From an uncultured bacterium (GTDB taxonomy: Bacteria > Fermentibacterota > Fermentibacteria > Fermentibacterales > JCC-6), in NCBI GenBank assembly GCA_964386635.1, contig CAYLRO010000012.1:1010-65009 (forward strand): a stretch of DNA of 64,000 nt, written 5' to 3'. The translations under genes were made by a program, and so were the position numbers. This document shows, one piece after another, positions 52,076 to 64,000 of this stretch. The notes under the pieces are model-generated. The model worked only from the letters and a program-made list of their open reading frames with translations, was not told the DNA's origin and did no database searches. How positions within the stretch are numbered: the stretch's first letter is position 1; every line of letters begins with the position of its first letter.

Positions 52076-53389
52076 TCAAGTGAGAGTATTCTGAAGGCAA
52101 TCCCCGAATATAGCAAGCATCTCATCAGTTTCCTTTTCACTTGAATTCAGAGGAGGCCACAGATAGATTACCGGTCCCAGAGGTCTCAGGAGAAGGCCCT
52201 CTGATATGGCCATTTCGGTCACCAGAGCTGCAGCTCGTTTTCCACCGGCACTTTCACTGATCTCAAGGGAGCTCATGCTTCCCAGAGAGGCAGCATTGTG
52301 GACCCCGGGTATGGTTCGGAATTTTCTGAAGGCCCCGGCGAGTTTTGCAGGTACGCAGGATCGCTCAACGATCTCTTCCTCCTGGAACACCTGCAGGGCA
52401 GCTGTTGCTGCTGCAGAAGCAAGGGGATTTCCTGCGAAGGTATGGCCGTGGTAGAAGGTTCTGTCCTTTTTGCCCGTTGATCTGAATGAATCGTAAATCC
52501 TCTCAGTTGCCAGCACTGCACTCATTGGCAGGTAACCTCCCGTGAGAGATTTACCGACTACAAGCAGGTCGGGAGTTACACCGGCGAGATCTGACGCAAA
52601 CATCTTTCCGGTTCTCCCGAATCCCACAGCTATTTCATCCAGAATCATCAGAACATCCAGTTCGCAACAGAGTTTGCTGAGCTTTCCGATGTATTCAGGC
52701 GGGTAGATCCGTATTCCGGCAGCTCCCTGGCAAACCGGTTCAGCGATTACTGCAGCAGTTCTGGATGCTTCCCTCCGGAGTATTTCCTCCATTCCTGCAA
52801 AACACCTGGTGCTGCAGGATTCAGGAGATTCGCCGAAAGGGCAGTGAAAGCAGTGGGGAGCAGGTGCCTGTACGGATCTGTTCAGAGCATGAGCAATAGG
52901 CTGGTGGAATCCCGGTATGAAACCCAGTGCCACTGTTCCCAGTGTATCCCCGTGGTAGGCATTTGTCAGAGAGATGATGTTTTTCTTTTCACTGCGCCCG
53001 AGATTCCACCAGTACTGAATTGCCATTCTCAGGGATGCCTCAACAGCACTTGCTCCATCTGAAGCATAGTAAGCTCTCGTGAGACCGGCAGGTGTTACCT
53101 GGCTAAGCATGTCAGAGAGCTCAATTACAGAGGTGTGAGACATTCCGCCTGTAATAGAATGCTGCACTCTAAGTAGTTGTTCAGCAACAGAGTTAACGAT
53201 ATGAGGGTGACTATGGCCCAGGTTAACGCACCACCAGGAGCTGATACCGTCCATGTATTTTCTGCCCTGGGTATCCCAGAGGTGAACGCCCCTGGCCTTT
53301 TCAATCACCGGGAAGTTTTTTACTATGAATTTGTTTATGTCGGTGTATGGATGCCAGAGGTGCTTCAGATCTGATTCTCTGTAGTTCAT
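52076..53389 (-). CDS. bioA: Adenosylmethionine-8-amino-7-oxononanoate aminotransferase
   Basis: Class-III aminotransferase, 437 aa, N-terminal LWHPYT motif, located in the bio operon. Confidence 0.85.
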   Translation of the reverse strand: MNYRESDLKHLWHPYTDINKFIVKNFPVIEKARGVHLWDTQGRKYMDGISSWWCVNLGHSHPHIVNSVAEQLLRVQHSITGGMSHTSVIELSDMLSQVTPAGLTRAYYASDGASAVEASLRMAIQYWWNLGRSEKKNIISLTNAYHGDTLGTVALGFIPGFHQPIAHALNRSVQAPAPHCFHCPFGESPESCSTRCFAGMEEILRREASRTAAVIAEPVCQGAAGIRIYPPEYIGKLSKLCCELDVLMILDEIAVGFGRTGKMFASDLAGVTPDLLVVGKSLTGGYLPMSAVLATERIYDSFRSTGKKDRTFYHGHTFAGNPLASAAATAALQVFQEEEIVERSCVPAKLAGAFRKFRTIPGVHNAASLGSMSSLEISESAGGKRAAALVTEMAISEGLLLRPLGPVIYLWPPLNSSEKETDEMLAIFGDCLQNTLT

Positions 53390-54072
53390 TCTTTAAGCGA
53401 CTCCATGAGTTTCCTGCATATCCCTGTAAAGAATTCAAAGGGAAATCTGTCAGGAGAAAATGGGATTTCACCCAGGATACAGGTCTTTCCGTATTCCCGG
53501 ATTGTGGCGATGTTGTTCCTGCTGTACAGTGGAGAGGGCTCACTGATCTGATTCATCACAACACCGGCAAGAGCAAGCCCTGCATTGCGAATGGTATTTA
53601 TTGACATCAGTGTATGGTTGATTGCTCCCAGCCTGTTTGCTGCTACAAGCACCACTGGCCAGCCCAGTGAAATCATCAGATCCAGCATGGTTTTTCCTGA
53701 ACCCAGCGGAACAAGTACTCCCCCTGCTCCTTCCGCAACAATGCATTCATGGTTACGGGATAATTCTTGCAGTTTGCCTGCAAGTTCATTTACATTTATT
53801 GAACTGTCTGACAGTTCCGCTGCAAGGTGCGGAGAACATTCATGTGAAAATCGAACCGGACAGAGCCTCTTCTTCTCGCTGAGGTCTGCAGACCAGCCGG
53901 ATCTGTTGAGAGAGAACTCCAGATCAGATGAAACATCGTTAACGCAGCCTGTCTGTACAGGTTTTAACGGGATAGCATCAATGCCGGCATTTCGAAAAGC
54001 TCTTACTATTCCTGCTGTCACGAATGTTTTTCCGGCGTCTGTATCGGTGCCGGTAATAAAGAGGTTCCTCAA
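53386..54072 (-). CDS. bioD: Dethiobiotin synthetase
   Basis: LFITGTDTDAGKT P-loop, 228 aa. Confidence 0.85.
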   Translation of the reverse strand: MRNLFITGTDTDAGKTFVTAGIVRAFRNAGIDAIPLKPVQTGCVNDVSSDLEFSLNRSGWSADLSEKKRLCPVRFSHECSPHLAAELSDSSINVNELAGKLQELSRNHECIVAEGAGGVLVPLGSGKTMLDLMISLGWPVVLVAANRLGAINHTLMSINTIRNAGLALAGVVMNQISEPSPLYSRNNIATIREYGKTCILGEIPFSPDRFPFEFFTGICRKLMESLKE

Positions 54073-54074
54073 AC

Positions 54075-54869
54075 TTACTGCCTGACAGCTTTCAGAAAGT
54101 GAACGGAGTAGGTGGAGGGTACAAATCCTCTTTTATCTTCATAATCAGAACTGTACTTCCTCAGTGCCTTTCTGAGTATTCCAGGTTCAGTTGATGAGAA
54201 ATTGCCGTGCCGGGAAAGGGAGGCGCCGATGCCATTGAGAGCTTTCAGCGCCTTGGCCGGTGAGGAAAATCCTACACTGACAGAACGGGTTCTGCTTTCC
54301 ACTATCCGGAAACCTGACCTTCTGAAAAGTTCATCCCACTGGTCTCCAGTCAGGTAGTTAAGAGAGTTCCACTTTACACCGGTTTTCTCAAAACTGTGCT
54401 GAAATTCTCTCAGCATTCCCTTTACAGGGATAGCATGAGCCGTACTTCCTCCCGGGGCAACCAGGGAAGCGATTTTCTCGGTGAACCTGACTGGATCCAT
54501 TACCCATTGAGCAGCGCAGCTGGACACAACAAGGTCATAGAGTCGGTTACACTCTGATTTGTCGAAGTTCCAGATGGTGTGCCGCACAAGGAAAGAGGGA
54601 GGAACCTTGGTGCGGCACACCCTGACCATTCCGGATGCACCATCGGTAAAAACCTTGCTGGCACATGGGAACAGCCTGTTGAGTTTTTTTGAAAGTATTC
54701 CGGTTCCACAACCCAGCTCAAGAACGGAATCAGGCTGTGAGTGTCTTATCATTTCTGCAAGTTCTTCTGCGATCCGCCTGTGATGAATGGCGAATTCATC
54801 ATATCCGTCAGCAGCCCTGGAGAAATTACTCAATATCAGTTTTCGATCAGGTAGAGAGACTTCCGGCAA
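54075..54869 (-). CDS. bioC: Malonyl-ACP O-methyltransferase (SAM-dependent MTase)
   Basis: VLELGCGTG SAM motif, 264 aa, located in the bio operon between bioH and bioD. Confidence 0.7.
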   Translation of the reverse strand: MPEVSLPDRKLILSNFSRAADGYDEFAIHHRRIAEELAEMIRHSQPDSVLELGCGTGILSKKLNRLFPCASKVFTDGASGMVRVCRTKVPPSFLVRHTIWNFDKSECNRLYDLVVSSCAAQWVMDPVRFTEKIASLVAPGGSTAHAIPVKGMLREFQHSFEKTGVKWNSLNYLTGDQWDELFRRSGFRIVESRTRSVSVGFSSPAKALKALNGIGASLSRHGNFSSTEPGILRKALRKYSSDYEDKRGFVPSTYSVHFLKAVRQ

Positions 54870-55497
54870 GATCCACCACAGCCTTTCCTATTACATTTCC
54901 ATGGTTAACCGGGAGGAGATGACCTGCGCCTTCTATGGAAATCGTTTTACACCGGGGCATTACAAACTCAGCCAGATACCTGGAGATTTCCACCGGGATT
55001 ATCCTGTCCCTGGTTCCATGGATTATTGTTACCGGAACAGACGGATCCGGCACAGCCAGATGGTTGAACATTACAGAAAGCCCTGATATCAGCTCCTCCA
55101 TGGAGAATTCGTCTGATTGCTCAAGGAGCCGTGGCAATTCAGTTTCAGCTGCACCGCATTCAATGAAAAATGATCTGAGATAACCCCTGCGGCTTCTTGT
55201 GAGCATTCTGCTCATCATTGAACACCGCTCCGGCTCAATTCCAGGTCTGTTCACACCTGCAGCAATACATGTCATTGAGGACACAAGAACCATTCCCCTC
55301 ACTTCTGCTCTTCTTGACAGGTCCATTGCTATCTGTCCTCCAAGTGACCACCCTGCGAGAATACAGTTTTCCGGAAGTTCGAATTCTCCGCTCATGATCC
55401 TGTCCCAGGAGATGCACTTTTTTTCCAGACCAGGGCAGTTAACATTCTTCCATATCCTGTCACCGGTTGCCCAGCCGCTTATGAATACGATCTGCAT
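54847..55497 (-). CDS. bioH: Pimeloyl-ACP methyl ester esterase (alpha/beta hydrolase)
   Basis: GWSLGG nucleophile elbow and His near the C-terminus; operon context. Confidence 0.6.
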   Translation of the reverse strand: MQIVFISGWATGDRIWKNVNCPGLEKKCISWDRIMSGEFELPENCILAGWSLGGQIAMDLSRRAEVRGMVLVSSMTCIAAGVNRPGIEPERCSMMSRMLTRSRRGYLRSFFIECGAAETELPRLLEQSDEFSMEELISGLSVMFNHLAVPDPSVPVTIIHGTRDRIIPVEISRYLAEFVMPRCKTISIEGAGHLLPVNHGNVIGKAVVDLAGSLST

Positions 55498-56597
55498 TAC
55501 AGCCGTCCTATCTCTGCTGCTGTTGCAGCAAGATCACCGGGAGAGTGGGCAAGGGTTACGGAGAATCTCAGTCTTGCTGTGTTCTCAGGAACGGTGGGAG
55601 GCCTTACAGCTACTGCGAGAATTCCCTTTGCTTCAAGCTGTTGTGCTGATTCCACAGTTTTACAGCAGCTCCCTGTAAATACAGGTACGATCTGGGAGGA
55701 GGAAGACTGAACAATACCGGCTTCTCTGAGACTCTTCCTGAACAGTTCAGCTCTTTCAAGAAGATCACCGCCCATTCCAGGATTCTCCTTCAAAACATCA
55801 AGTGCTCCAAGAGCTGCGCCTGCAGCACAGGGGGGAAGACCGGTGGTATAAATGAAGCTTCTGGACCGGTTGACCAGAAATTCCCGCACTGATCCGGAAC
55901 AGGATACAAATCCTCCATAACTTCCCAGAGATTTGCTCAGGGTACCGGTGAGAATATCCGGTGTGATCCCCATCTCTCTGCAGAGACCGCCTCCTTTTCC
56001 GAATACACCAATCGCGTGTGCTTCATCAACTGCAAGAAGACAGCCATACTTCAGGGCGATTTCACTGATTCTCTTCAGCGGTGCCTTGTCTCCATCCATG
56101 CTGAAGAGCGAGTCTGTGACAATTATCCTTTTTCCTGTGGACTCATCATTTTCAATCATCTTCTGAAGAAGCTCAGTATCACAGTGGCGGTATCGTCTGA
56201 CTTTTGCTCTGGAATGGCAGGCGCCGTCAACCAGACTTGCATGGTTCAGGCGATCTGCGAAAATGGTATCATTCCTGCCTGCAACTGCTCCCAGCACTCC
56301 AAGATTTGCAAGAAAGCCGCTGCCGAAAACAAGTGCGGTTTCCATTCCCGTGAGAGCTGCAAGTTCGCTCTCAAGCTCTTCGTGAACAGCAAGGTTTCCC
56401 GTCATAAGCCTGGAACCTCCGGCACCTGTACCGTATTCCTCCAGCATTTCCAATGCTCTGTGCTTTACATGCGGATGTTTTGACAGGTTCAGGTAATCGT
56501 TGGAAGAGAAGTTCAGAACATTCCTGTTCCTGAGAACAAGGGATCTCAGCTGCCCCTTTTCTTCAATGCTCCTCAGTTCTCTGAGAGCGAAGTTCAC
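55497..56597 (-). CDS. bioF: 8-amino-7-oxononanoate synthase
   Basis: Class-II aminotransferase/AONS pattern (FSSNDYLNLS), 366 aa. Confidence 0.85.
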   Translation of the reverse strand: MNFALRELRSIEEKGQLRSLVLRNRNVLNFSSNDYLNLSKHPHVKHRALEMLEEYGTGAGGSRLMTGNLAVHEELESELAALTGMETALVFGSGFLANLGVLGAVAGRNDTIFADRLNHASLVDGACHSRAKVRRYRHCDTELLQKMIENDESTGKRIIVTDSLFSMDGDKAPLKRISEIALKYGCLLAVDEAHAIGVFGKGGGLCREMGITPDILTGTLSKSLGSYGGFVSCSGSVREFLVNRSRSFIYTTGLPPCAAGAALGALDVLKENPGMGGDLLERAELFRKSLREAGIVQSSSSQIVPVFTGSCCKTVESAQQLEAKGILAVAVRPPTVPENTARLRFSVTLAHSPGDLAATAAEIGRL

Positions 56598-57481
56598 AAT
56601 CTGTACCCCGACTCCCTGACAAGCTTTCTGTCCTCTTCCGGAGCAGTTCCTTCTGTGGTAAGCAGAGAGCCTGTCATGAGACCGGTGACACCGTAATCAA
56701 ACATGAGACCAGCTCTGTCTTCAAGCTTTGCCCTGCCGGCACAGACCCTGAGTTCGGATTCAGGATTCACCAGCCTGAACAGGGCAATGATTCTGAACAG
56801 TTTCTCCCGTGAAAGATCTTCGCCGGATATCTTTGTTCCCGGCACATCCAGATAGAAGTTAAGAGCAATGGAATCCGCTTTCAGAGAATTCAGCGTGAAG
56901 GCCATATCCACCCTGTCTTCATCGCCTTCCCCGATGCCTATTATTCCTCCTGAGCAAAGTGACAGACCTTCTTCCCTTGCTGCTGAGGCTGTTTCCACCC
57001 TCTCTTTCCAGCTGTGGGTGGTGCAGATTTGCCGGAAGAATCTTTCAGAGCTTTCAATGTTGTGGTGGTATCTTGATATGCCTGATCTTTTTAACGCCTT
57101 AAGTCTGCTGCGGTTAATTATTCCAAGAGAAGCACAGAGAGGGCACAGGTCTTTGCCTGCTTCAGCCAGCAGGCATATTCTTCCCAGGTCTTTCCATGAA
57201 ACACCTCTGCCGCTTGTAACTGCGGAAAACCTGTCTATTCCTGCATCTGTTACAGACCTGTGTGCCTCTTTCATTTCCTCAAGGCTCAGCATGTCACTGC
57301 CTTGAGAATGCGACTGAGCGCAGAAAGCACAATCCTCGGAACAGGCGCCATTTTTGCAGTTTACTATTGCGCACAGCCGAACTCTTCTGGTGAAAGCAGT
57401 ATCCCGTGCTTCCATGCACATCACTCTGAGTTCCTCCATGGGAATGGAGGTAAGGACGCTAAGAGCTTCTGATCTGTTCAT
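56594..57481 (-). CDS. bioB: Biotin synthase (radical SAM)
   Basis: CSEDCAFC radical SAM motif and BioB-length ORF. Confidence 0.9.
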   Translation of the reverse strand: MNRSEALSVLTSIPMEELRVMCMEARDTAFTRRVRLCAIVNCKNGACSEDCAFCAQSHSQGSDMLSLEEMKEAHRSVTDAGIDRFSAVTSGRGVSWKDLGRICLLAEAGKDLCPLCASLGIINRSRLKALKRSGISRYHHNIESSERFFRQICTTHSWKERVETASAAREEGLSLCSGGIIGIGEGDEDRVDMAFTLNSLKADSIALNFYLDVPGTKISGEDLSREKLFRIIALFRLVNPESELRVCAGRAKLEDRAGLMFDYGVTGLMTGSLLTTEGTAPEEDRKLVRESGYRL

Positions 57482-58247
57482 TTCTCTTCCACTTCAAATA
57501 CAGTTTTTCAAGGTTATCAAGAACCAGAGCTGTGAGTTCTGCCCTGGAGACCATCTGTCCAGTCAGCGAAAACACTGACTCGCTGTGAGCAACTGCGTTT
57601 CTGTGGGAAATATTCAGACCAATCCCGGCAACCAGGTGGTGGATTCTGTCAATCTCTCCACAAACCTCACAGAGAACTCCCCCGATCTTTCCCCTGCCGC
57701 TCCACAGTCCGGTTTTCAGAAGAGTAAGAGGAAGAGAAGGGCACAACTCACTTACCGCTGCTGCAAGAGCTTCAAGGGCGATTCGCTCGATCTCCACAGT
57801 TCTTTCCACAGGTATTTCCGGATTGAGTATTACTGACATGTACAGGTTTTTCCCTGCGGGACTTTCCCAGGTTTTTCCATCCAGTGCTTTCCCGGCGGTC
57901 TGCGTGTCAGCTGTAACAACAGTTCCTTCTCTTGAATCTGTATAACCCAGTCTCATTGCCCGCTGGTTAGTGGAAATGATCTCTTTATGGTATTCAATGT
58001 TGTTTCCCATTACTCTGGAATTAAGCAGAGATGAAAGGACCTCAGCAGATGGTATGTCAGGTACAGACAGCAGCTGGTATCCAACTTTTGTCGAAGAGAG
58101 TATCTCAAAACCCAGATCTCTCAGACCTGCGATGTTCTTGCTTACAGCTGCTCTTGAAACACCAAGTTCCTCAGCAATCTTCTGCCCTGAGACATCACCG
58201 TCACCTGCCTTGAGAAGCCTCACAATTTCTGCTGCTGTCCTGTTCAT
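57459..58247 (-). CDS. birA: Bifunctional biotin-[acetyl-CoA-carboxylase] ligase and biotin operon repressor
   Basis: N-terminal wHTH (IAEELGVSRAAVSKNIAGLRDLGF) plus a BPL catalytic domain. Start chosen at ATG 58247 (AGGAGG SD 4 nt upstream), because the ORF-track start at 58298 lies inside the operator. Confidence 0.8.
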   Translation of the reverse strand: MNRTAAEIVRLLKAGDGDVSGQKIAEELGVSRAAVSKNIAGLRDLGFEILSSTKVGYQLLSVPDIPSAEVLSSLLNSRVMGNNIEYHKEIISTNQRAMRLGYTDSREGTVVTADTQTAGKALDGKTWESPAGKNLYMSVILNPEIPVERTVEIERIALEALAAAVSELCPSLPLTLLKTGLWSGRGKIGGVLCEVCGEIDRIHHLVAGIGLNISHRNAVAHSESVFSLTGQMVSRAELTALVLDNLEKLYLKWKRNEQIRSS

Positions 58248-58291
58248 GACCCTCCTGTGGAATCCATGAACAATGGAAAAAGAATTACGTA

Positions 58292-58321
58292 TTGTCAACC
58301 GCGAATGGTGACAGGTTTACA
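58292..58321. promoter_or_regulatory. Putative BirA operator (bioO) upstream of the birA-bio operon
   Basis: TTGTCAACC-n13-GGTTTACA: an imperfect inverted repeat resembling the TGTAAACC/GGTTTACA-type BirA box, about 45 nt upstream of the birA start. Confidence 0.5.
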
Positions 58322-58457: not shown

Positions 58458-59246
58458 GTGAGCAGATTTCCGCAACCTCCTGATTCAATCGCTGTAAATT
58501 ATTCTGACTGGAAGTGGGAGAAAGCCTGGGACTGGCTTCCTCTTTCGATAACCTGGCGTCTCACATGCCCCACGGGAGAGGTGAGATACCTGAAGCTGGC
58601 CATTCCGGAGCACTTCCCCTCTCTTCAGGACGAAGCTTTAAGAATGCGCTGGGCAGGAGAGTATCTTCCTGTACCTCAGGTGCTTGATTCAGGATATGAT
58701 GGCAGAGTGCGGTGGCTTCTTACAAAGGGTCTTCCCGGTCTTGATGCCACAGATCCATTCTGGAAGAAAGACCCTGAAAGACTGGTGAGTGCTCTTGCAG
58801 GCGGTCTTAAAACCTTTCACAAGGCACCTGTAAAAGAGTGTCCTTTCGATTTCACACTGGACAGAGCCATTGCACTTGTAAGAAAACGGGCTGAAAAAGG
58901 GCTGATAAACAGGGAAACAGATCTCCATGAAGAGTTTTCTCATCTGACTGTTCATGAAGCAGTATCTCTTCTTGAAAGGACGAGACCCTCTTCAGAAATT
59001 CTTACTGTCTGCCACGGGGACTATTGCCTGCCTAACATTCTTCTGGAGAACTGGAAGCCCACAGGCTTCATTGATCTGGGAGAGCTGGGAGTTGCTGACA
59101 GGTGGTGGGACATTGCAGTTGCCTCCTGGAGCGTTACCTGGAATCTGGGGCCCGGGCTTGAAGATCTGTTTTACAGAGAGTACTGTATCGAACCTGATCC
59201 TGCAAGAATTAATTTTTACAGACTGCTGTATGACTTGTCATCCTGA
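58458..59246 (+). CDS. Aminoglycoside 3'-phosphotransferase-like kinase (APH(3') family)
   Basis: Catalytic HGDYCLPNIL (HGDxxxxN), IDLGELGVADRWWDIAVA (DxG...DR) and C-terminal INFYRLLYDL, closely paralleling APH(3') enzymes; 262 aa. Confidence 0.7.
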   Translation: MSRFPQPPDSIAVNYSDWKWEKAWDWLPLSITWRLTCPTGEVRYLKLAIPEHFPSLQDEALRMRWAGEYLPVPQVLDSGYDGRVRWLLTKGLPGLDATDPFWKKDPERLVSALAGGLKTFHKAPVKECPFDFTLDRAIALVRKRAEKGLINRETDLHEEFSHLTVHEAVSLLERTRPSSEILTVCHGDYCLPNILLENWKPTGFIDLGELGVADRWWDIAVASWSVTWNLGPGLEDLFYREYCIEPDPARINFYRLLYDLSS

Positions 59247-59270
59247 CTGGAACATTGTTTAGCATGGCAG

Positions 59271-59276
59271 TATAAT
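59271..59276 (+). promoter_or_regulatory. Candidate -10 element (TATAAT) for the tandem-lipoprotein/rSAM operon
   Basis: A consensus TATAAT lies 39 nt upstream of the first paralog's start, in the 68-nt gap after the APH gene. The -35 is weak. Confidence 0.3.
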
Positions 59277-59314
59277 AGTCTACGGAGCTTTATCAATATT
59301 CTGTAAGAGGTGCT

Positions 59315-59770
59315 ATGTCTGTTTTCATTTTCAGAACCAGGAAGAGTCTTCTCAGGTTTCATGCACAGGCAGTTGCTTCACTCCTTGGCATTGCCGGTGT
59401 TCTTTCAACTGCATGCGATACCTTTTCAGCAGTACCTGCTTACGGTCCTCCCGGGGTTTCTCTTACTCTTACAGGAAGTGTCCTCTCAGCTGCAGACAGT
59501 TCCACGATACCTGATATATATCTTAAAGCTCTCAGCCCTGATTCCAGCATATCGTACTTCGAGAACTTTTCCGTCAGTGACGGCAGTTATTATCTGTACC
59601 TGGAAACCTGGGATGAGGTGTGGCCGGATACCATTCGAATTGTTTCGCAGGATGTGGATGGTTCTGAAAACGGATCTTTCCTCAGTGCAGATACTCTGGT
59701 TTTTCCTCCTCAGGTGAATGAAGAGGCACAAATAGAAACAGACATATTTATGGAACCGGAGGAAGAGTAG
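59315..59770 (+). CDS. Small lipoprotein, paralog 1 of 4 (beta-sandwich/CarboxypepD_reg-like domain, acidic C-terminus)
   Basis: Basic N-terminus plus hydrophobic core ending in a Cys (LGIAGVLSTAC). Shares YGPP, V.S.DSS, SDG.YY, WPD.L.I...D.DG..NG and a C-terminal EPEEE with the next three ORFs. Confidence 0.45.
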   Translation: MSVFIFRTRKSLLRFHAQAVASLLGIAGVLSTACDTFSAVPAYGPPGVSLTLTGSVLSAADSSTIPDIYLKALSPDSSISYFENFSVSDGSYYLYLETWDEVWPDTIRIVSQDVDGSENGSFLSADTLVFPPQVNEEAQIETDIFMEPEEE

Positions 59771-60225
59771 TGGCTGCAGTCTTTTCAGCGAGAAGAAAAC
59801 TGATAAGGTACTGCAGTAAGGCACTTGGATACACTCTGGGGCTGCTGGGGGTTATTACCGGCTCCAGCTGCTTACCGCCCTTGAATTACAGTGTTCCGGA
59901 CAATTTCAACCTTACTGTTCAGGGGAAGGTCATGTCAGCTGAGGACAGTACCGGTATCAAGGAAATCCATCTTTTTCTCGCGAATACAGATTCATCAGAT
60001 TGCTTCAGTGGTTCCCAGACAGACAGCGAGGGGAATTACATTATTGGTATGGGCAGCAGCGGAGAGATATACTGGCCCGACACACTTCTTCTCATTGCAG
60101 ACGACATGGATGGAGGCTGGCACGGAGACTTTCAGGATGCCGATACCATAATCTTTGCTCCCTACATAGGAACCAGCACCATGTTTAGCATCGACTTCTA
60201 TCTGCAGCCTGAAGAGGAGAAGTAA
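59770..60225 (+). CDS. Small lipoprotein, paralog 2 of 4
   Basis: GTG start overlapping the previous stop (TAGTG). RRKLIRY...LGLLGVITGSSC lipobox-like; same conserved blocks; ends QPEEEK. Confidence 0.45.
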   Translation: MAAVFSARRKLIRYCSKALGYTLGLLGVITGSSCLPPLNYSVPDNFNLTVQGKVMSAEDSTGIKEIHLFLANTDSSDCFSGSQTDSEGNYIIGMGSSGEIYWPDTLLLIADDMDGGWHGDFQDADTIIFAPYIGTSTMFSIDFYLQPEEEK

Positions 60226-60656
60226 TGCCGGAAGCAGTTTTTTCAGCGAGAAGAAAACTGTTCAGGTACGTTGACAGATTAACCGGATTCATCCTGGGGC
60301 TGCTGGGAGTCATCAGTGTTTCCTGCGGTATTGAGCCCGTGGCCTATGGTCCCCCGGACGGATGTTTCATAACCGGTCTGGTGAAAGATAACGGTACCGC
60401 TGTTCAGGGTATCGAGATCAATGTGCAGAGCCCTGACTCATCAATCATTTATCATTCAACAGAAACCAGCAGCGATGGTGCTTACTGGGCAGATCTGTAT
60501 GAATGGCCTGATTCTCTTCTTATTACAGCCTCGGATATAGACGGGCCTGATAACGGTTCATATCTGCCTGAGGGAAAGTATATCACAGATATCCCTGAAG
60601 AAGGTTCTCTCTACTACACTGTGGATTTCGAACTGGAACCGGACCCGTCAAAGTAA
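60225..60656 (+). CDS. Small lipoprotein, paralog 3 of 4
   Basis: TAATG overlap with paralog 2. RRKLFRY...LGLLGVISVSCG; same conserved blocks; ends EPDPSK. Confidence 0.45.
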   Translation: MPEAVFSARRKLFRYVDRLTGFILGLLGVISVSCGIEPVAYGPPDGCFITGLVKDNGTAVQGIEINVQSPDSSIIYHSTETSSDGAYWADLYEWPDSLLITASDIDGPDNGSYLPEGKYITDIPEEGSLYYTVDFELEPDPSK

Positions 60657-61088
60657 ATGGCTGAGTACATAAGGAAATCCGAACGGAACCTGATGAAGTT
60701 CTGTACAAGGGTTTTTGGAGGAATACTCTCTCTGTTCGGAGTTATCACCAGTTCCTGCGGCAGCATGCCATGCGATTACGGGGTGGAACCGGTGCATGCA
60801 GTGGTTGTTCAGGGAATGGTTAGAAGCGATACAACAGCAATTGAGGGCATCAGACTGCAGATTCTGAGTATGGATTCCAGTCAGGTTTACAGTTCCAGTC
60901 TGTCGGGTCACATGGGAAGTTACTACCTGTCAAGTGAAGAGAAGCCGGATTCCATTCTTATCACGGCAACGGATGTAGATGGAGAAGCAAACGGGCTTTA
61001 CCTTCCTGCAGAAACCTTCAGGGCAACTGATCCGGAGAAGACGGAAGAGGAGTTTGTAATTGATTTCAATCTTATTCCCGATGGATAG
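60657..61088 (+). CDS. Small lipoprotein, paralog 4 of 4
   Basis: ATG immediately after the paralog 3 stop. FGVITSSCG lipobox-like; same conserved blocks. Confidence 0.45.
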   Translation: MAEYIRKSERNLMKFCTRVFGGILSLFGVITSSCGSMPCDYGVEPVHAVVVQGMVRSDTTAIEGIRLQILSMDSSQVYSSSLSGHMGSYYLSSEEKPDSILITATDVDGEANGLYLPAETFRATDPEKTEEEFVIDFNLIPDG

Positions 61089-61091
61089 TCC

Positions 61092-62168
61092 ATGAATTCA
61101 CTCAAGCCTGGTTTAAAGAAAAGAATTCACCTTGACCTCTTCTCTCATTACAGGAAACTTCAGGCGGCAATACATGAACTGAATTACCTTTTCTGGGAGT
61201 GCACCCTCCGGTGCAACATGAACTGCGGCCACTGCGGAAGCGACTGTTTTTCATCATCAACTGTCCCTGATATGCCTGCGGAGGATTTCCTGAAAGTTCT
61301 CAGGTCCGTGAAAGAGAAAATGGATCCCGGCGGAATTACCATTGCTGTAACAGGCGGTGAACCCATCATGCGAAAAGACCTGGAGAAAGCCGGGGAGCAG
61401 ATCGCTCTCCTGGGATATCCATGGGGTATTGTGAGTAATGGATGGGCGCTGGACAGAAGAAGGCTGAATTCACTGTTGAATGCCGGGATGAAAACACTGA
61501 CTGTAAGCCTTGACGGGCTGGAGGATTCCCACGACTGGCTGCGGAAAAAAGGATCCTTTAAACGGGCTGTGAATGCTCTGTCATGTGCGGCACAGAGTTC
61601 TCTGCCTGTGTTTGACACAGTTACCTGCCTTACACAGAAGAATGTGAACCAGCTGGAACAGATCAAAGATCTTCTTATCAGTACAGGCGTTAAAAGATGG
61701 AGGATATTCAGCATCTTTCCAAAGGGAAGAGCCGAGAATCAGCAGGAGATGAAACTCACAGGCAGTCAGCTTCGCGGTGTAATGGAATTCATTAAAGAGA
61801 CCCGGAAAAAAGGAGAGATAAAAGTCAGCTACAGCTGTGACGGTTTCCTGGGGGCATATGAAAAGGAAGTCAGAGATGACTTCATGTACTGCAGAGCCGG
61901 GATAAGTGTTGCTTCTGTTCTTATTGACGGTTCAATATCCGCATGTCCCAGTCTGCGGTCGGATTTCATTCAGGGCAATATCTACAGGGATGACTTCCTG
62001 GACTGCTGGGAGAATCGTTTTCAGGTAATGAGAAAGAGAAACTGGACAAGAACCGGGATATGCGCTGACTGCAGCTACTGGAAATGGTGCAACGGCAACG
62101 GCCTGCACCTGAGAGACGAGAACACGGGAGAGCTTCTTATGTGTCAGCTTAAAATGATGGAAGATTAA
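61092..62168 (+). CDS. Radical SAM / SPASM-domain maturase (anSME / QhpD / peptide-modifying family)
   Basis: CNMNCGHC (Cx3Cx2C) radical SAM cluster, GGEP and VSLDGLEDSHDWLRKKGSF (SxDG...HD..R block of anSME-type enzymes), and a Cys-rich C-terminal SPASM region (CPSLRSD...CADCSYWKWCNGNG). Starts 3 nt after paralog 4. Confidence 0.8.
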   Translation: MNSLKPGLKKRIHLDLFSHYRKLQAAIHELNYLFWECTLRCNMNCGHCGSDCFSSSTVPDMPAEDFLKVLRSVKEKMDPGGITIAVTGGEPIMRKDLEKAGEQIALLGYPWGIVSNGWALDRRRLNSLLNAGMKTLTVSLDGLEDSHDWLRKKGSFKRAVNALSCAAQSSLPVFDTVTCLTQKNVNQLEQIKDLLISTGVKRWRIFSIFPKGRAENQQEMKLTGSQLRGVMEFIKETRKKGEIKVSYSCDGFLGAYEKEVRDDFMYCRAGISVASVLIDGSISACPSLRSDFIQGNIYRDDFLDCWENRFQVMRKRNWTRTGICADCSYWKWCNGNGLHLRDENTGELLMCQLKMMED

Positions 62169-62195
62169 GGCGGCGGAACCCGCTGTTCCGCCGCC
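62169..62195. terminator. GC-rich hairpin between the convergent rSAM and DUF2141 genes
   Basis: ggcggcggaac-ccgct-gttccgccgcc, an 11-bp stem. No clear U-tract, so it may act as a bidirectional terminator or attenuator. Confidence 0.35.
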
Positions 62196-62243
62196 ATCCT
62201 TGTGCAGGCTGGGAGTTGTACCTGCACCGGGAGGGGAACTCAG

Positions 62244-62744
62244 TTATCTGGGCGGACCGCCGCCGGAACCTCCGCGGCCTCCACCTTCGCCACCTCCAGG
62301 AGGACCTCCCTGAGGCTCTTCCATTTTTCTTACAGTGATACTTGTACTGGATACGGTGCCCTCATGGATGAAACAGATGTCCTCAAACTCAGGTCTTGAT
62401 CCCCCCTGAGACTCCATCTGAGGCAGCTCACCGGATATCCCGACGAATTCGTCTTCCATGTCAAACTGGCCGTTCTCGTTAGCATCGTGGTATGCCATTG
62501 CCACATATCTGCCTTCCGGCACTGAAGGTATTTCAAGATGAACTGCAAGGCTCTCAATGTTTGCTCTGTAGGTTAGAGCAGCTCCATCAGGATTCGGAGG
62601 GAAACCCAGTTCCTCTTCAGTGAGCAATACAACAACAGCCTGGCCAGAATTGTCTTCGAATCCTGTTACTTCCACCAGTACTGTTCCATCAATTGCGACT
62701 TCTGTGCCGGATCCCAGCAGTATCAAAAACATCAGTAAACTCAT
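62244..62744 (-). CDS. DUF2141-like secreted protein with a C-terminal Gly/Pro-rich low-complexity tail
   Basis: Start at ATG 62744 (AAAGGAG SD; MSLLMFLILLGSG signal). The conserved DUF2141 block is GRYVAMAYHDANENGQFDMEDEFVGISGE, and the tail is QGGPPGGGEGGGRGGSGGGPPR. The ORF-track start at 62828 adds an unlikely N-terminus. Confidence 0.5.
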   Translation of the reverse strand: MSLLMFLILLGSGTEVAIDGTVLVEVTGFEDNSGQAVVVLLTEEELGFPPNPDGAALTYRANIESLAVHLEIPSVPEGRYVAMAYHDANENGQFDMEDEFVGISGELPQMESQGGSRPEFEDICFIHEGTVSSTSITVRKMEEPQGGPPGGGEGGGRGGSGGGPPR

Positions 62745-62941
62745 TTCAACTCCTTTCTTCACAGCAAAGATTGCTTCCTTTCCCGTCAGAAGTGTTTCCC
62801 GCTTGTAACAGATTGTATCCTGAATCACTGGAGCTGGTTCAGATATTGCAGAACAGAATGACCTGCTTTATACTTGTTAAAGTAAGAGGAATTATGTCAG
62901 CATGCACAGTGAAAATCATAATATTCGTATGACTGGAAATA

Positions 62942-63733
62942 TTGGGGAGATTTATTATGAGGATGGTTGTCCTGTTTTCTGTATTTGCCGTTTTCACCTT
63001 GTCCTGTGAATCCAGTGTTACAGGTTCCGAAAATGAAGTTATTCAAAGCATGAAGTTTGTTGAGATCTCCCCAGGGACGTTCGAGATGGGAGCTTCGGTA
63101 GATGAAGAGGGATCCACCGCTCTTGAAAGACCTGTACACACTGTAACCATTGACTACTCATTTGAAATTATGAGCATAGAGGTTTCCCAGGGTGTATGGG
63201 AAAGTGTTATGGGCAGCAATCCTGCTGCAGGTGCTTCCCAGGGAGAAAACTATCCGGTTTATAATGTATCATGGGATGACTGCCAGGAATTCTGTAATCA
63301 GATGAACATTATGGATTCCGCATATACATACCGACTGCCTGCAGAATCCGAATGGGAGTTCTGCTGCCGGGCAACCTCGGTTACCGCTTTTTACTGGGGA
63401 AGCAGCACAAACTACATTGATAACTTTGCATGGTGCGCCTTCACTGCTGGTGGGAATCCTCACCAGGTACAGGAACTCATATCAAATCAGTGGGATCTCT
63501 TCGACATGTCCGGGAACTTGTTTGAATGGTGTCAGGACAGCTATCATTTTAACTACAATGGTGCACCTGATGATGGAAGCGCATGGATTGATGCACAAAA
63601 CGGAGACAGGATAGTTCGCGGCGGATGCTTTGAATCAACTACTGCTGCCTGCAGATCTGCTTTCCGAGAGCCAATGGATCAGAGTCAGGGGTTCGAGAGC
63701 ACAGGTTTCAGGTTAGTTCGTACTCCGAACTAG
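62942..63733 (+). CDS. FGE-sulfatase/SUMF1-family domain lipoprotein (formylglycine-generating-enzyme-like fold)
   Basis: Lipobox (VFTLSCES), then FGE-family blocks YRLPAESEWEF, RIVRGGCF, GFRLVRTP. Confidence 0.65.
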   Translation: MGRFIMRMVVLFSVFAVFTLSCESSVTGSENEVIQSMKFVEISPGTFEMGASVDEEGSTALERPVHTVTIDYSFEIMSIEVSQGVWESVMGSNPAAGASQGENYPVYNVSWDDCQEFCNQMNIMDSAYTYRLPAESEWEFCCRATSVTAFYWGSSTNYIDNFAWCAFTAGGNPHQVQELISNQWDLFDMSGNLFEWCQDSYHFNYNGAPDDGSAWIDAQNGDRIVRGGCFESTTAACRSAFREPMDQSQGFESTGFRLVRTPN

Positions 63734-63833
63734 TTATCTGTCATCACGGTTGAGCAGATCTCTTATCCTGGATCATGTCCTCTGCTATATTCTTCGCTGA
63801 TGGATGAATGAATACTGATGGAAGGCGGACGAT

Positions 63834-64000
63834 ATGTATAGCAGAGCAGCTGTTCCTCTTTTTACCGTTGCAGTTCTGATCTTAACAGGGTTTGCAGATG
63901 CTTACCCTGTGAGAGACATTCAAATACCCCTCCCTGAGGAAATGGGCCCTGATGTGCTCATCTCCGATCCCGACGTTCCCCTGTCGCCGCCTCCGGACCC
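63834..64000 (+). CDS. 5' end of a secreted protein gene running off the window
   Basis: ATG at 63834, signal-peptide-like MYSRAAVPLFTVAVLILTGFADA, then a Pro/Asp-rich open frame to the window end. Confidence 0.35.
   Translation, partial: MYSRAAVPLFTVAVLILTGFADAYPVRDIQIPLPEEMGPDVLISDPDVPLSPPPD

Follow-up and report, generated by a model that had tools for sequence, protein, structure and literature searches.

A four-copy locus of the radical SAM/lipoprotein pair TIGR04133/TIGR04134 in an uncultured Fermentibacterota bacterium, with a conserved tyrosine-glycine tether as the candidate target

We analyzed a 64,000-nucleotide (nt) stretch of DNA (the window) from an uncultured bacterium of the Fermentibacterota (contig CAYLRO010000012.1), in which four tandem genes for small putative lipoproteins, P1 to P4, run into a gene for a radical S-adenosylmethionine (rSAM) enzyme with a SPASM domain. 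The DNA belongs to a metagenome-assembled genome of Fermentibacteria type, to which genomes of Candidatus Sabulitectum are closest. By its sequence, the locus is a four-copy member of a catalogued, functionally uncharacterised rSAM/lipoprotein pair. The locus contains the following features.

59315-59770, plus strand: P1, lipoprotein paralog of 151 amino acids (aa)
59770-60225, plus strand: P2, lipoprotein paralog of 151 aa, with a GTG start that overlaps the P1 stop
60225-60656, plus strand: P3, lipoprotein paralog of 143 aa
60657-61088, plus strand: P4, lipoprotein paralog of 143 aa
61092-62168, plus strand: radical SAM/SPASM gene, 358 aa, TIGR04133 family
62169-62195, no strand: GC-rich hairpin of 11 pairs, 9 of them G-C, directly after the stop codon of the rSAM gene

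The stop/start junctions from P1 to P4 read TAGTG, TAATG and TAAATG, and a gap of 3 nt separates P4 from the rSAM gene. An earlier examination of the same DNA without database searches (the sequence-only reading) had described these genes, and its coordinates, strands and spacing for the four open reading frames (ORFs) and the rSAM gene all checked out. It had also seen no short precursor ORF and had proposed a search for one. According to that search, the 68-nt leader upstream of P1 contains no independent ORF, and gaps of only 0 to 3 nt between the genes leave no room in which such a precursor could be hidden. The hairpin, called by a consensus scan only, lies between the convergent rSAM and DUF2141 genes and is likely the end of the operon. 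A promoter scan with the sigma-70 consensus, which may not fit this organism, gave no result better than chance and no site on the plus strand ahead of P1. The window as a whole had no match in Rfam.

The rSAM protein matched the NCBIfam model TIGR04133 ("rSAM_w_lipo") with 523 bits (cutoff, 425; E value, 3e-157) over positions 1 to 349 of the 350 in the hidden Markov model (HMM), and by every testable criterion it is assigned to this family. The companion model, TIGR04134 ("lipo_with_rSAM"; cutoff, 39.8 bits), is described as "radical SAM-associated putative lipoprotein." P1 (23.5 bits; E value, 4.5e-5), P3 (27.8 bits) and P4 (26.7 bits) matched it with E values of 2e-6 to 5e-5, and P2 gave no match. 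At related loci (given here by L numbers), the Fermentibacteraceae partners in L002 (42.8 bits) and L003 (44.3 bits) scored above the cutoff, and a Bacteroidales partner in L004 reached 111.6 bits. On these scores, P1 to P4 are classed as divergent members of a wider TIGR04134-type family, below its curated threshold.

Both models are of the type "hypoth_equivalog." The pair was flagged by curators over a decade ago and is already named by annotation pipelines: NCBI uses the TIGR04133 and TIGR04134 names, and JGI the labels "radical SAM enzyme (rSAM/lipoprotein system)" and "putative lipoprotein (rSAM/lipoprotein system)." The sequence-only reading had stated that the locus matches no described system, which is wrong at the bioinformatic level because NCBIfam and JGI already name the pair. 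In the searchable literature, no paper mentioning the TIGR04133/TIGR04134 pair was found; the sole match was a typing error for TIGR04131, the model of the C-terminal domain of the type IX secretion system. A paper on the mining of peptides synthesized by the ribosome and modified after translation (RiPPs) in Bacteroidales does not cover the TIGR04133 family. The locus resembles the catalogued pair in an enzyme score above the cutoff, in gene order, in partners of about 150 aa with a lipoprotein-type N terminus and in tight coupling. It differs in that P1 to P4 fall below the TIGR04134 cutoff and in having four partner copies rather than the usual one or two.

P1 to P4 could be aligned over their full length, with 32 to 33% identity to P1, 22 invariant columns and a mean column identity of 56%. 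An HMM of the family built here gave 121 to 130 bits for each of them (130 for P1, 122.8 for P2), and no further member was found with it in the window. The four ORFs are therefore true paralogs, as had been proposed. Each N terminus has a basic n-region and a hydrophobic helix followed by a lipobox-like sequence (STAC, GSSC, SVSC and TSSC, respectively) that ends at Cys34. The Cys34 codons are at 59414-59416 in P1, 59869-59871 in P2, 60324-60326 in P3 and 60756-60758 in P4. These N termini fit a permissive lipobox pattern, the residue at -3 not being L, V or I. Cys34 is the only Cys common to all four paralogs.

Past this Cys, each paralog carries a short tyrosine motif. In P1, it is A42-Y43-G44-P-P (59438-59446), upstream of a beta-sandwich of the CnaB/CarboxypepD_reg type; in P3, it is A40-Y41-G42-P-P (60342-60350). 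P4 has D40-Y41-G42-V-E (60774-60782), in which the Pro is missing, and P2 has N39-Y40-S41-V-P (59884-59892), with Ser in place of Gly. P2, the sole paralog of the four without YG, is also the sole one without a TIGR04134 match, and it may be a copy that is decaying or is no substrate, or it may serve as a natural control for the YG hypothesis set out below.

An AlphaFold model of P3, made from a 7-sequence alignment, had a mean predicted local distance difference test score (pLDDT) of 78. It showed a helix (residues 2 to 33), a low-confidence linker (31 to 43) and a sandwich of seven strands (47 to 132) with a pLDDT above 90. Both the Cys and the YG sit in the linker, ahead of the first strand. 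Foldseek matched the sandwich to CnaB, SdrD-B/UafA, transthyretin-like and carboxypeptidase-D regulatory domains, so that the model and its matches agree with the sandwich that had been guessed. The acidic C termini noted before are real as well, and the absence of a CxPxR motif was confirmed, since no C/S-x-P/A-x-R motif occurs in any of the four.

To place the locus among its relatives, 98 independent TIGR04133-type rSAM loci were collected, 13 of them from species-representative genomes, 80 from metagenomes and several via exact-protein look-ups; L014 is the same locus as that in the window. A word-indexed protein search with the four paralogs retrieved only 7 close relatives. An exhaustive HMMER search returned 1,731 representatives at E values up to 1e-3, including giant multirepeat surface proteins that match the beta-sandwich only.

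Automated detection picked up a partner ORF at 90 of the 98 rSAM loci, which come from several phyla, against a background of 6 occurrences of the N-module motif in 1,050 nonadjacent ORFs. At 74 of these 90 loci, the nearest partner lay no more than 60 nt upstream, on the same strand. Six of the eight automated misses carry a partner that was recognized by eye: a divergent "FQACYG.P" Bacteroidales type in L006, a Ser-rich "MFYKHWKK...FW.C...LYGV" type in L045, L047, L061 and L081, and a 250-aa form in L023. No partner was found in L064, either automatically or by eye, and L076 ends at a contig edge. When the search was centered on the partner, an rSAM/SPASM gene was immediately downstream in 5 of 6 loci on long contigs. 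The proposal that the paralogs and the rSAM gene form one functional unit thus gained support from the neighborhood comparison, with adjacency in at least 90 of 98 rSAM-centered and 5 of 6 partner-centered loci, and the same figures support the paralogs as the likely substrate set. No third conserved component was found among the related loci.

The automated counts gave one partner ORF in 46 loci, two in 34, three in 9 and four in 1, although they take in some spurious matches made by the regular expression only. A second four-copy array is present in L098 (156, 157, 160 and 161 aa). The array in the window, which had been presented as part of a candidate undescribed locus, is therefore uncommon but not unique; it stands at the upper end of the known range and is not a new architecture.

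The partners are alike only in their N-terminal module. What follows as a passenger is a beta-sandwich in most of them, a Ser-rich low-complexity region in a Fibrobacter-like group, or nothing. A class of domain-less partners of 53 to 84 aa was found in L010, L015, L016, L019 to L021, L024, L025, L032, L034, L039, L042, L046, L096 and L102, either with the rSAM gene alone or alongside full-length partners. The short partner in L019 contains FLASCKDPNPPVPEYGIIPMYGVPATS, and further examples are MKRLILKLYDKLIIGLLFSSFFLASCKDPNPPVPEYGIIPMYGVPATSVVNNQTPHNVNTIKK and, in part, VVVSGCPPVVLYGPAPEYGVVPVYGVPVDYNLDK; the one in L024 is a 73-aa ORF. The sandwich and the acidic tail are dispensable because such partners exist. 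The sandwich itself (positions ~44 to 92, with the TD..G.Y and D.DG..NG blocks) recurs 5 to 22 times in metagenomic proteins of 1,000 to 5,100 aa (P0128, P0137, P0139, P0168, P0246 and others); therefore, the passenger appears to be a common surface-protein repeat that was recruited to the rSAM-associated N-module.

Among 97 aligned short representatives, information content peaked at the lipobox Cys (5.8 bits) and at the tether residues Y, G and P (5.1, 3.4 and 3.5 bits), followed by an "LLG" in the hydrophobic helix and the D-x-D-G-x-x-N-G block in the sandwich. A lipobox-like Cys is present in 308 of 316 unique partners. At least one YG lies within 40 aa after this Cys in 298 of the 308, and 60 have two or three. 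Per 1,000 aa, there were 29.8 YG in the tether, 3.4 elsewhere in the partner and 2.0 in the rSAM proteins. Its context across the partners was E (48%) or M (20%), then Y-G, then T, V or S, and then P (83%). According to these alignments, what accompanies the enzyme is a signal-like helix plus Cys plus X-Y-G-x-P, and not the sandwich or the acidic tail. The sequence-only reading had looked for the target in the folded domain, the acidic tail or Cys and Ser residues. This does not fit the family, in which many partners have neither sandwich nor tail, the lipobox Cys is the only Cys in common and conservation lies in the N-module.

In Pfam, the enzyme matched the Radical_SAM domain at 77.8 bits and the SPASM domain at 30.2 bits (cutoff, 21.5). 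The CX3CX2C motif is formed by C41, C45 and C48 (61212-61235), and the SPASM region (61836-62144) contains seven conserved Cys residues, C249, C267-x12-G-x4-C285, C324-x2-C327-x5-C333 and C351. Together, these features bear out its earlier identification as a radical SAM/SPASM protein. The "SLDG...HD..R" block, which had been taken as a mark of anSME/QhpD-type maturases, occurs in rSAM/SPASM proteins in general and does not diagnose that type. In the canonical CX2CX5CX3C, the enzyme has Gly337 where the fourth Cys would be. By analogy with the auxiliary-cluster arrangement of solved SPASM enzymes, this suggests two auxiliary clusters, one of which would have an open or non-Cys ligand site. Outside these motifs, three more Cys residues of the radical SAM core are conserved among the TIGR04133 homologs, C52 and C179 without exception and C37 in at least 90%; they could donate a hydrogen atom, act as an additional cluster ligand or form a disulfide.

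With auxiliary cluster I apparently held by three Cys residues only, the conserved Cys of the partner, its single most conserved residue, could be a reaction partner (a thioether donor or a cluster ligand) instead of a lipidation site, and the N terminus would then be a leader or a membrane anchor that is not cleaved. In CteB, an open cluster site does bind a substrate Cys. We consider this very unlikely here. The lipobox pattern fits 221 of the 308 partners, and the curators of both NCBI and JGI call the partners lipoproteins. A fixed crosslink between Cys and Tyr or Gly is argued against because Cys and YG are anywhere from 0 to 32 residues apart, and farther in the Ser-rich forms.

An AlphaFold2 model of the enzyme (pLDDT, 92.6; predicted template modeling score, 0.90) consists of an N-terminal helix (residues 8 to 27), a partial TIM barrel and the SPASM region, and no winged-helix domain of the RiPP recognition element (RRE) type was seen in it. 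The best solved structures found by Foldseek were SuiB, SkfB, BlsE, PqqE, DesII and ChlB, with template modeling (TM) scores of 0.55 to 0.69. The peptide maturases SuiB, SkfB, PqqE and ChlB were the closest folds (TM score, 0.63 to 0.69), and anSME was absent among the 50 best structural matches. The nearest NCBIfam families other than its own were TIGR04053, NirJ2, the mycofactocin maturase, AhbD, TIGR04103 and the GDL-peptide maturase, at 100 to 120 bits and far below their cutoffs. The anSME and QhpD families were not among the 25 best NCBIfam matches, so the score for the anSME model TIGR03942, outside those 25, is below 56 bits (cutoff, 349). The maturase type that had been assigned to the enzyme, anSME/QhpD, was thus not upheld by the profile comparison that had been proposed as its check.

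These results bear on the model of the sequence-only reading, in which an anSME/QhpD-like enzyme modifies the folded sandwich or the acidic C terminus (by a thioether or formylglycine) and the DUF2141 and FGE-like genes belong to the system. anSME and QhpD are SPASM enzymes that can act on proteins, and like the enzyme proposed below they modify export-bound proteins in the cytoplasm before translocation; the acidic C termini, as stated above, exist. Nevertheless, the enzyme is not close to either by HMM or by fold, both lying outside the 25 best families and the 50 best folds, and sandwich and tail are missing from many partners. The lipobox Cys is the sole common Cys, the paralogs have no C/SxPxR motif, and a Cys-rich subunit like QhpC is absent. 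No sulfatase was found in the called genes over 10 kb upstream and 7.7 kb downstream of the locus. In addition, the DUF2141 and FGE-like genes lie beyond the hairpin and are not conserved neighbors. The comparative data largely refute this model, and we regard what is left of it as highly improbable.

A different possibility is that the enzyme acts on a nonprotein substrate, such as a tetrapyrrole, a lipid or a cofactor, with the lipoproteins serving as partners, for example to bind or display the product in the envelope. NirJ2, AhbD, NirJ and the uncharacterised TIGR04053 score like the peptide maturases, the small-molecule enzymes BlsE and DesII are also structural neighbors, and the enzyme has no RRE domain. 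The locus, in contrast, bears hallmarks of an enzyme and its substrate, namely, translational coupling, one to four partner copies, short partners that resemble RiPP precursors and conservation of a linear motif, and no conserved biosynthetic or transport neighbors were found among the related loci. A nonprotein substrate therefore seems quite unlikely to us.

Family membership, co-occurrence and the conserved part of the partner are established directly. From translational coupling, variable copy number, minimal partners, conservation of a short motif in a disordered tether and a conserved "signal" helix, we infer that the rSAM protein and its partners are an enzyme-substrate pair, and we think it probable that the partner serves as the substrate. 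We are somewhat less certain that modification takes place at the YG tether, though we still find it rather likely. rSAM/SPASM enzymes are cytoplasmic and oxygen sensitive, most of them modify peptides or proteins, and those that work on exported proteins, such as anSME, act before translocation. In the mechanism that we propose, the four pre-lipoproteins and the cytoplasmic enzyme would be translated from one tightly coupled operon. The enzyme would then bind the unfolded N-module of each partner ahead of Sec export, the conserved basic and hydrophobic "signal" helix probably doubling as a leader-like recognition helix. Radical chemistry would take place on X-Y-G-x-P, a few residues past the lipobox Cys, in the disordered tether before the sandwich. 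Finally, the modified protein would be exported, lipidated at Cys34 and cleaved, to give a membrane-anchored protein with a modified tether. Taken as a whole, a four-substrate rSAM/lipoprotein system whose enzyme acts on the tether motif before export is an account that we believe slightly more than we doubt.

As for the chemistry at the tether, known rSAM-SPASM spliceases offer a precedent. They excise a tyramine equivalent (C8H9NO; -135.06 Da) at X-Y-G to leave alpha-keto-beta-amino acids, occur in many bacteria as binary systems of enzyme and precursor, have precursors with a leader helix that is predicted to bind the enzyme and were discovered by a search for YG motifs in ORFs adjoining rSAM-SPASM genes (PMC11414181, PMC10849128, PMC9811515, PMC11626197). 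Under the definition of the XYG splice motif (PMC11414181, PMC10849128), P1 (AYG), P3 (AYG) and P4 (DYG) each have such a motif beside an rSAM-SPASM gene, and P2 has NYS.

The likeness to the spliceotide systems (PlpX, PcpX, RhaX and RcsX; Morinaka 2018, Scott 2022, Richter 2024) extends beyond the rSAM-SPASM gene next to a substrate gene. YG, found in 298 of 308 tethers and sometimes two or three times, is the only non-Cys motif common to all partner classes; the system is binary, with no separate RRE protein, and the N-terminal helix of the substrate could bind the enzyme. There are differences too. The partners here carry Sec/lipoprotein signals, whereas spliceotides have Nif11- or NHLP-type leaders; X is mostly Glu (48%) here and Met or Leu in spliceotides; and the conserved Pro at +3 is specific to the TIGR04133-partner family. 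Judged from these motifs, membership of the TIGR04133 system in the spliceotide class is plausible. Splicing is our leading guess at the chemistry because the partner family shows the same YG beside an rSAM-SPASM gene by which spliceases were found. We put it forward tentatively, as a possibility in which we have less belief than doubt. A broader version, in which TIGR04133 enzymes are spliceases or other Tyr-directed radical maturases that act on exported lipoproteins, with the Sec/lipoprotein signal doubling as a RiPP leader, and make membrane-tethered ketoamides at XYGxP, is speculative and, as a whole, rather unlikely.

The main alternative to splicing is a Tyr-centered crosslink at the same YGxP site, as in a three-residue cyclophane of the ChlB type, with the Tyr ring joined to the beta-carbon of the +2 residue (-2 Da); epimerization or hydroxylation would be further options, none of them with tyramine excision. 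The three-residue cyclophane synthases (triceptides; ChlB and MicB) are SPASM enzymes of similar size with aromatic-X-X motifs that are often in tandem, and the two or three tandem motifs of some short partners recall multicyclophane precursors. They differ from the system here, in which Gly is invariant at X2, X3 is variable and the precursors are putative exported lipoproteins. ChlB is among the best folds (TM score, 0.65 to 0.69), as are the C-C crosslinkers SuiB and PqqE. However, ChlB is no better a match than SuiB or SkfB, and a likeness of ~0.65 is common to all SPASM maturases; the structural neighbors do not discriminate between splicing and a Tyr crosslink. In cyclophane motifs, X2 is generally variable, whereas splicing requires precisely the Gly that invariably follows Tyr here, and we favor splicing over a Tyr crosslink for this reason. 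The acceptor position of a cyclophane, +2, is variable in the partners (T, V, S, G, C, P or M). Y-G-X does conform, if trivially, to the aromatic-X-X motif of the cyclophane synthases (PMC12912966), and X2 is not Gly in the motifs cited there (YSK, HAS and FTK). We therefore consider other chemistry at the YGxP site unlikely, and less likely than splicing.

Several observations weigh against the proposal that the enzyme modifies the tether by splicing. No experimental data on any member of the family were found in the searchable literature. The assignment of splicing derives from a motif match, and the enzyme scored 104.8 bits against TIGR04103 (cutoff, 725), no better than against the heme enzymes NirJ2 and AhbD; the splicease PlpX presumably belongs to TIGR04103. 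With YS in P2 where the other paralogs have YG, and with no Pro in P4, not all four paralogs need be substrates. The lipoprotein status of the partners is a pattern-based prediction, and the -3 residues of the four paralogs in the window are noncanonical (S, G, S and T). L103 has a partner-family gene with no rSAM gene within 3 kb. In addition, YG-x-P could be a structural or sorting element, though it is kept in the domain-less partners. Scott et al. in 2022 reportedly screened rSAM-SPASM neighbors for YG motifs and may already have covered the TIGR04133 clade.

The pair is widespread, with thousands of clusters of rSAM homologs, including those of anaerobes from the human gut, the rumen and sediments. 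The comparison across the family shifts the likely target from a folded domain to the 4 to 5 residues of X-Y-G-x-P beside the lipid anchor. An old database prediction thereby becomes directly testable, as a mass change of either -135 Da or -2 Da at one particular position. If splicing does occur, backbone editing that yields beta-amino acids would extend from secreted RiPPs to envelope lipoproteins, and a known protease-inhibitor pharmacophore would be placed on bacterial surfaces. Fermentibacteria, Hydrogenedentes, Spirochaetes and many gut and rumen Bacteroidales would then display electrophilic ketoamide "warheads," which might, for instance, inhibit or trap proteases from their anchored position. 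Proteins of this kind would form a class of backbone-spliced lipoproteins in which the ketoamide tether is either bare, as in the partners of 53 to 84 aa, or fused to a beta-sandwich, and the short partners would be convenient for enzymology and as protein-engineering tags.

The genes around the locus are as follows; the third lies on L014 and is given in the coordinates of that locus.

62244-62828, minus strand: DUF2141 protein with a Gly/Pro-rich C-terminal tail, PQGGPPGGGEGGGRGGSGGGPPR
62942-63733, plus strand: FGE-sulfatase-domain protein with a lipoprotein-like N terminus (…FTLSC)
L014 12743-14404: next gene after the FGE-like gene, 553 aa, with a hydrophobic N terminus, no Pfam domain above threshold and a weak ZinT-like match (16.8 bits)
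58458-59246, plus strand: homolog of APH(3')-like aminoglycoside phosphotransferases (APH), directly upstream of P1 with a gap of 68 nt

The features that had been described for the DUF2141 and FGE-like proteins were found as stated. Their inclusion in the locus did not hold up, as they are either convergent with it or beyond the hairpin. DUF2141 is next to the rSAM gene only in L003 among the related loci, and neither the FGE-like gene nor the APH gene was found in any of them. The third secreted protein that had been counted as part of the locus is likewise beyond the hairpin and was not found beside the rSAM gene in related loci. The best NCBIfam matches of the FGE-sulfatase-domain protein were PvdO (89 bits) and GldK (59 bits), far below the cutoffs. 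The DUF2141, FGE-like and 553-aa genes make up a small cluster of uncharacterised envelope proteins.

In three loci from rumen and gut Bacteroidales, L005, L006 and L008, the partner gene is divergent from the rSAM gene and is followed by a gene for a protein of about 200 to 211 aa (L005 4927-5562, L006 1250-1873 and L008 291-893, all on the minus strand). This protein has a signal-peptide-like N terminus, ends in ...GWRF and has the look of an outer-membrane beta-barrel. It gave no NCBIfam match and was not found in the other loci, the neighbor in L099 being unrelated.

On the upstream side, the APH homolog scored 204.0 bits against the NCBIfam model APH_3p (cutoff, 205), one bit short of the curated threshold for a resistance gene, and, as no plus-strand promoter-like site was seen ahead of P1, it may be cotranscribed with the lipoprotein array. 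Farther upstream, the minus-strand genes at 53386-58298 form a cluster, transcribed away from the APH-like and lipoprotein/rSAM genes and unrelated to the rSAM/lipoprotein system. Their Pfam domains point to a dethiobiotin synthase-like protein (CbiA/AAA_26), a BioC-like methyltransferase, a BioH-like alpha/beta hydrolase, a BioF-like class I/II aminotransferase, a BioB-like protein (Radical_SAM plus BATS) and a BirA-like protein (HTH_11 plus BPL_LplA_LipB). Still farther upstream, L014 has a BioA-like Aminotran_3 gene and an isochorismatase-family gene.

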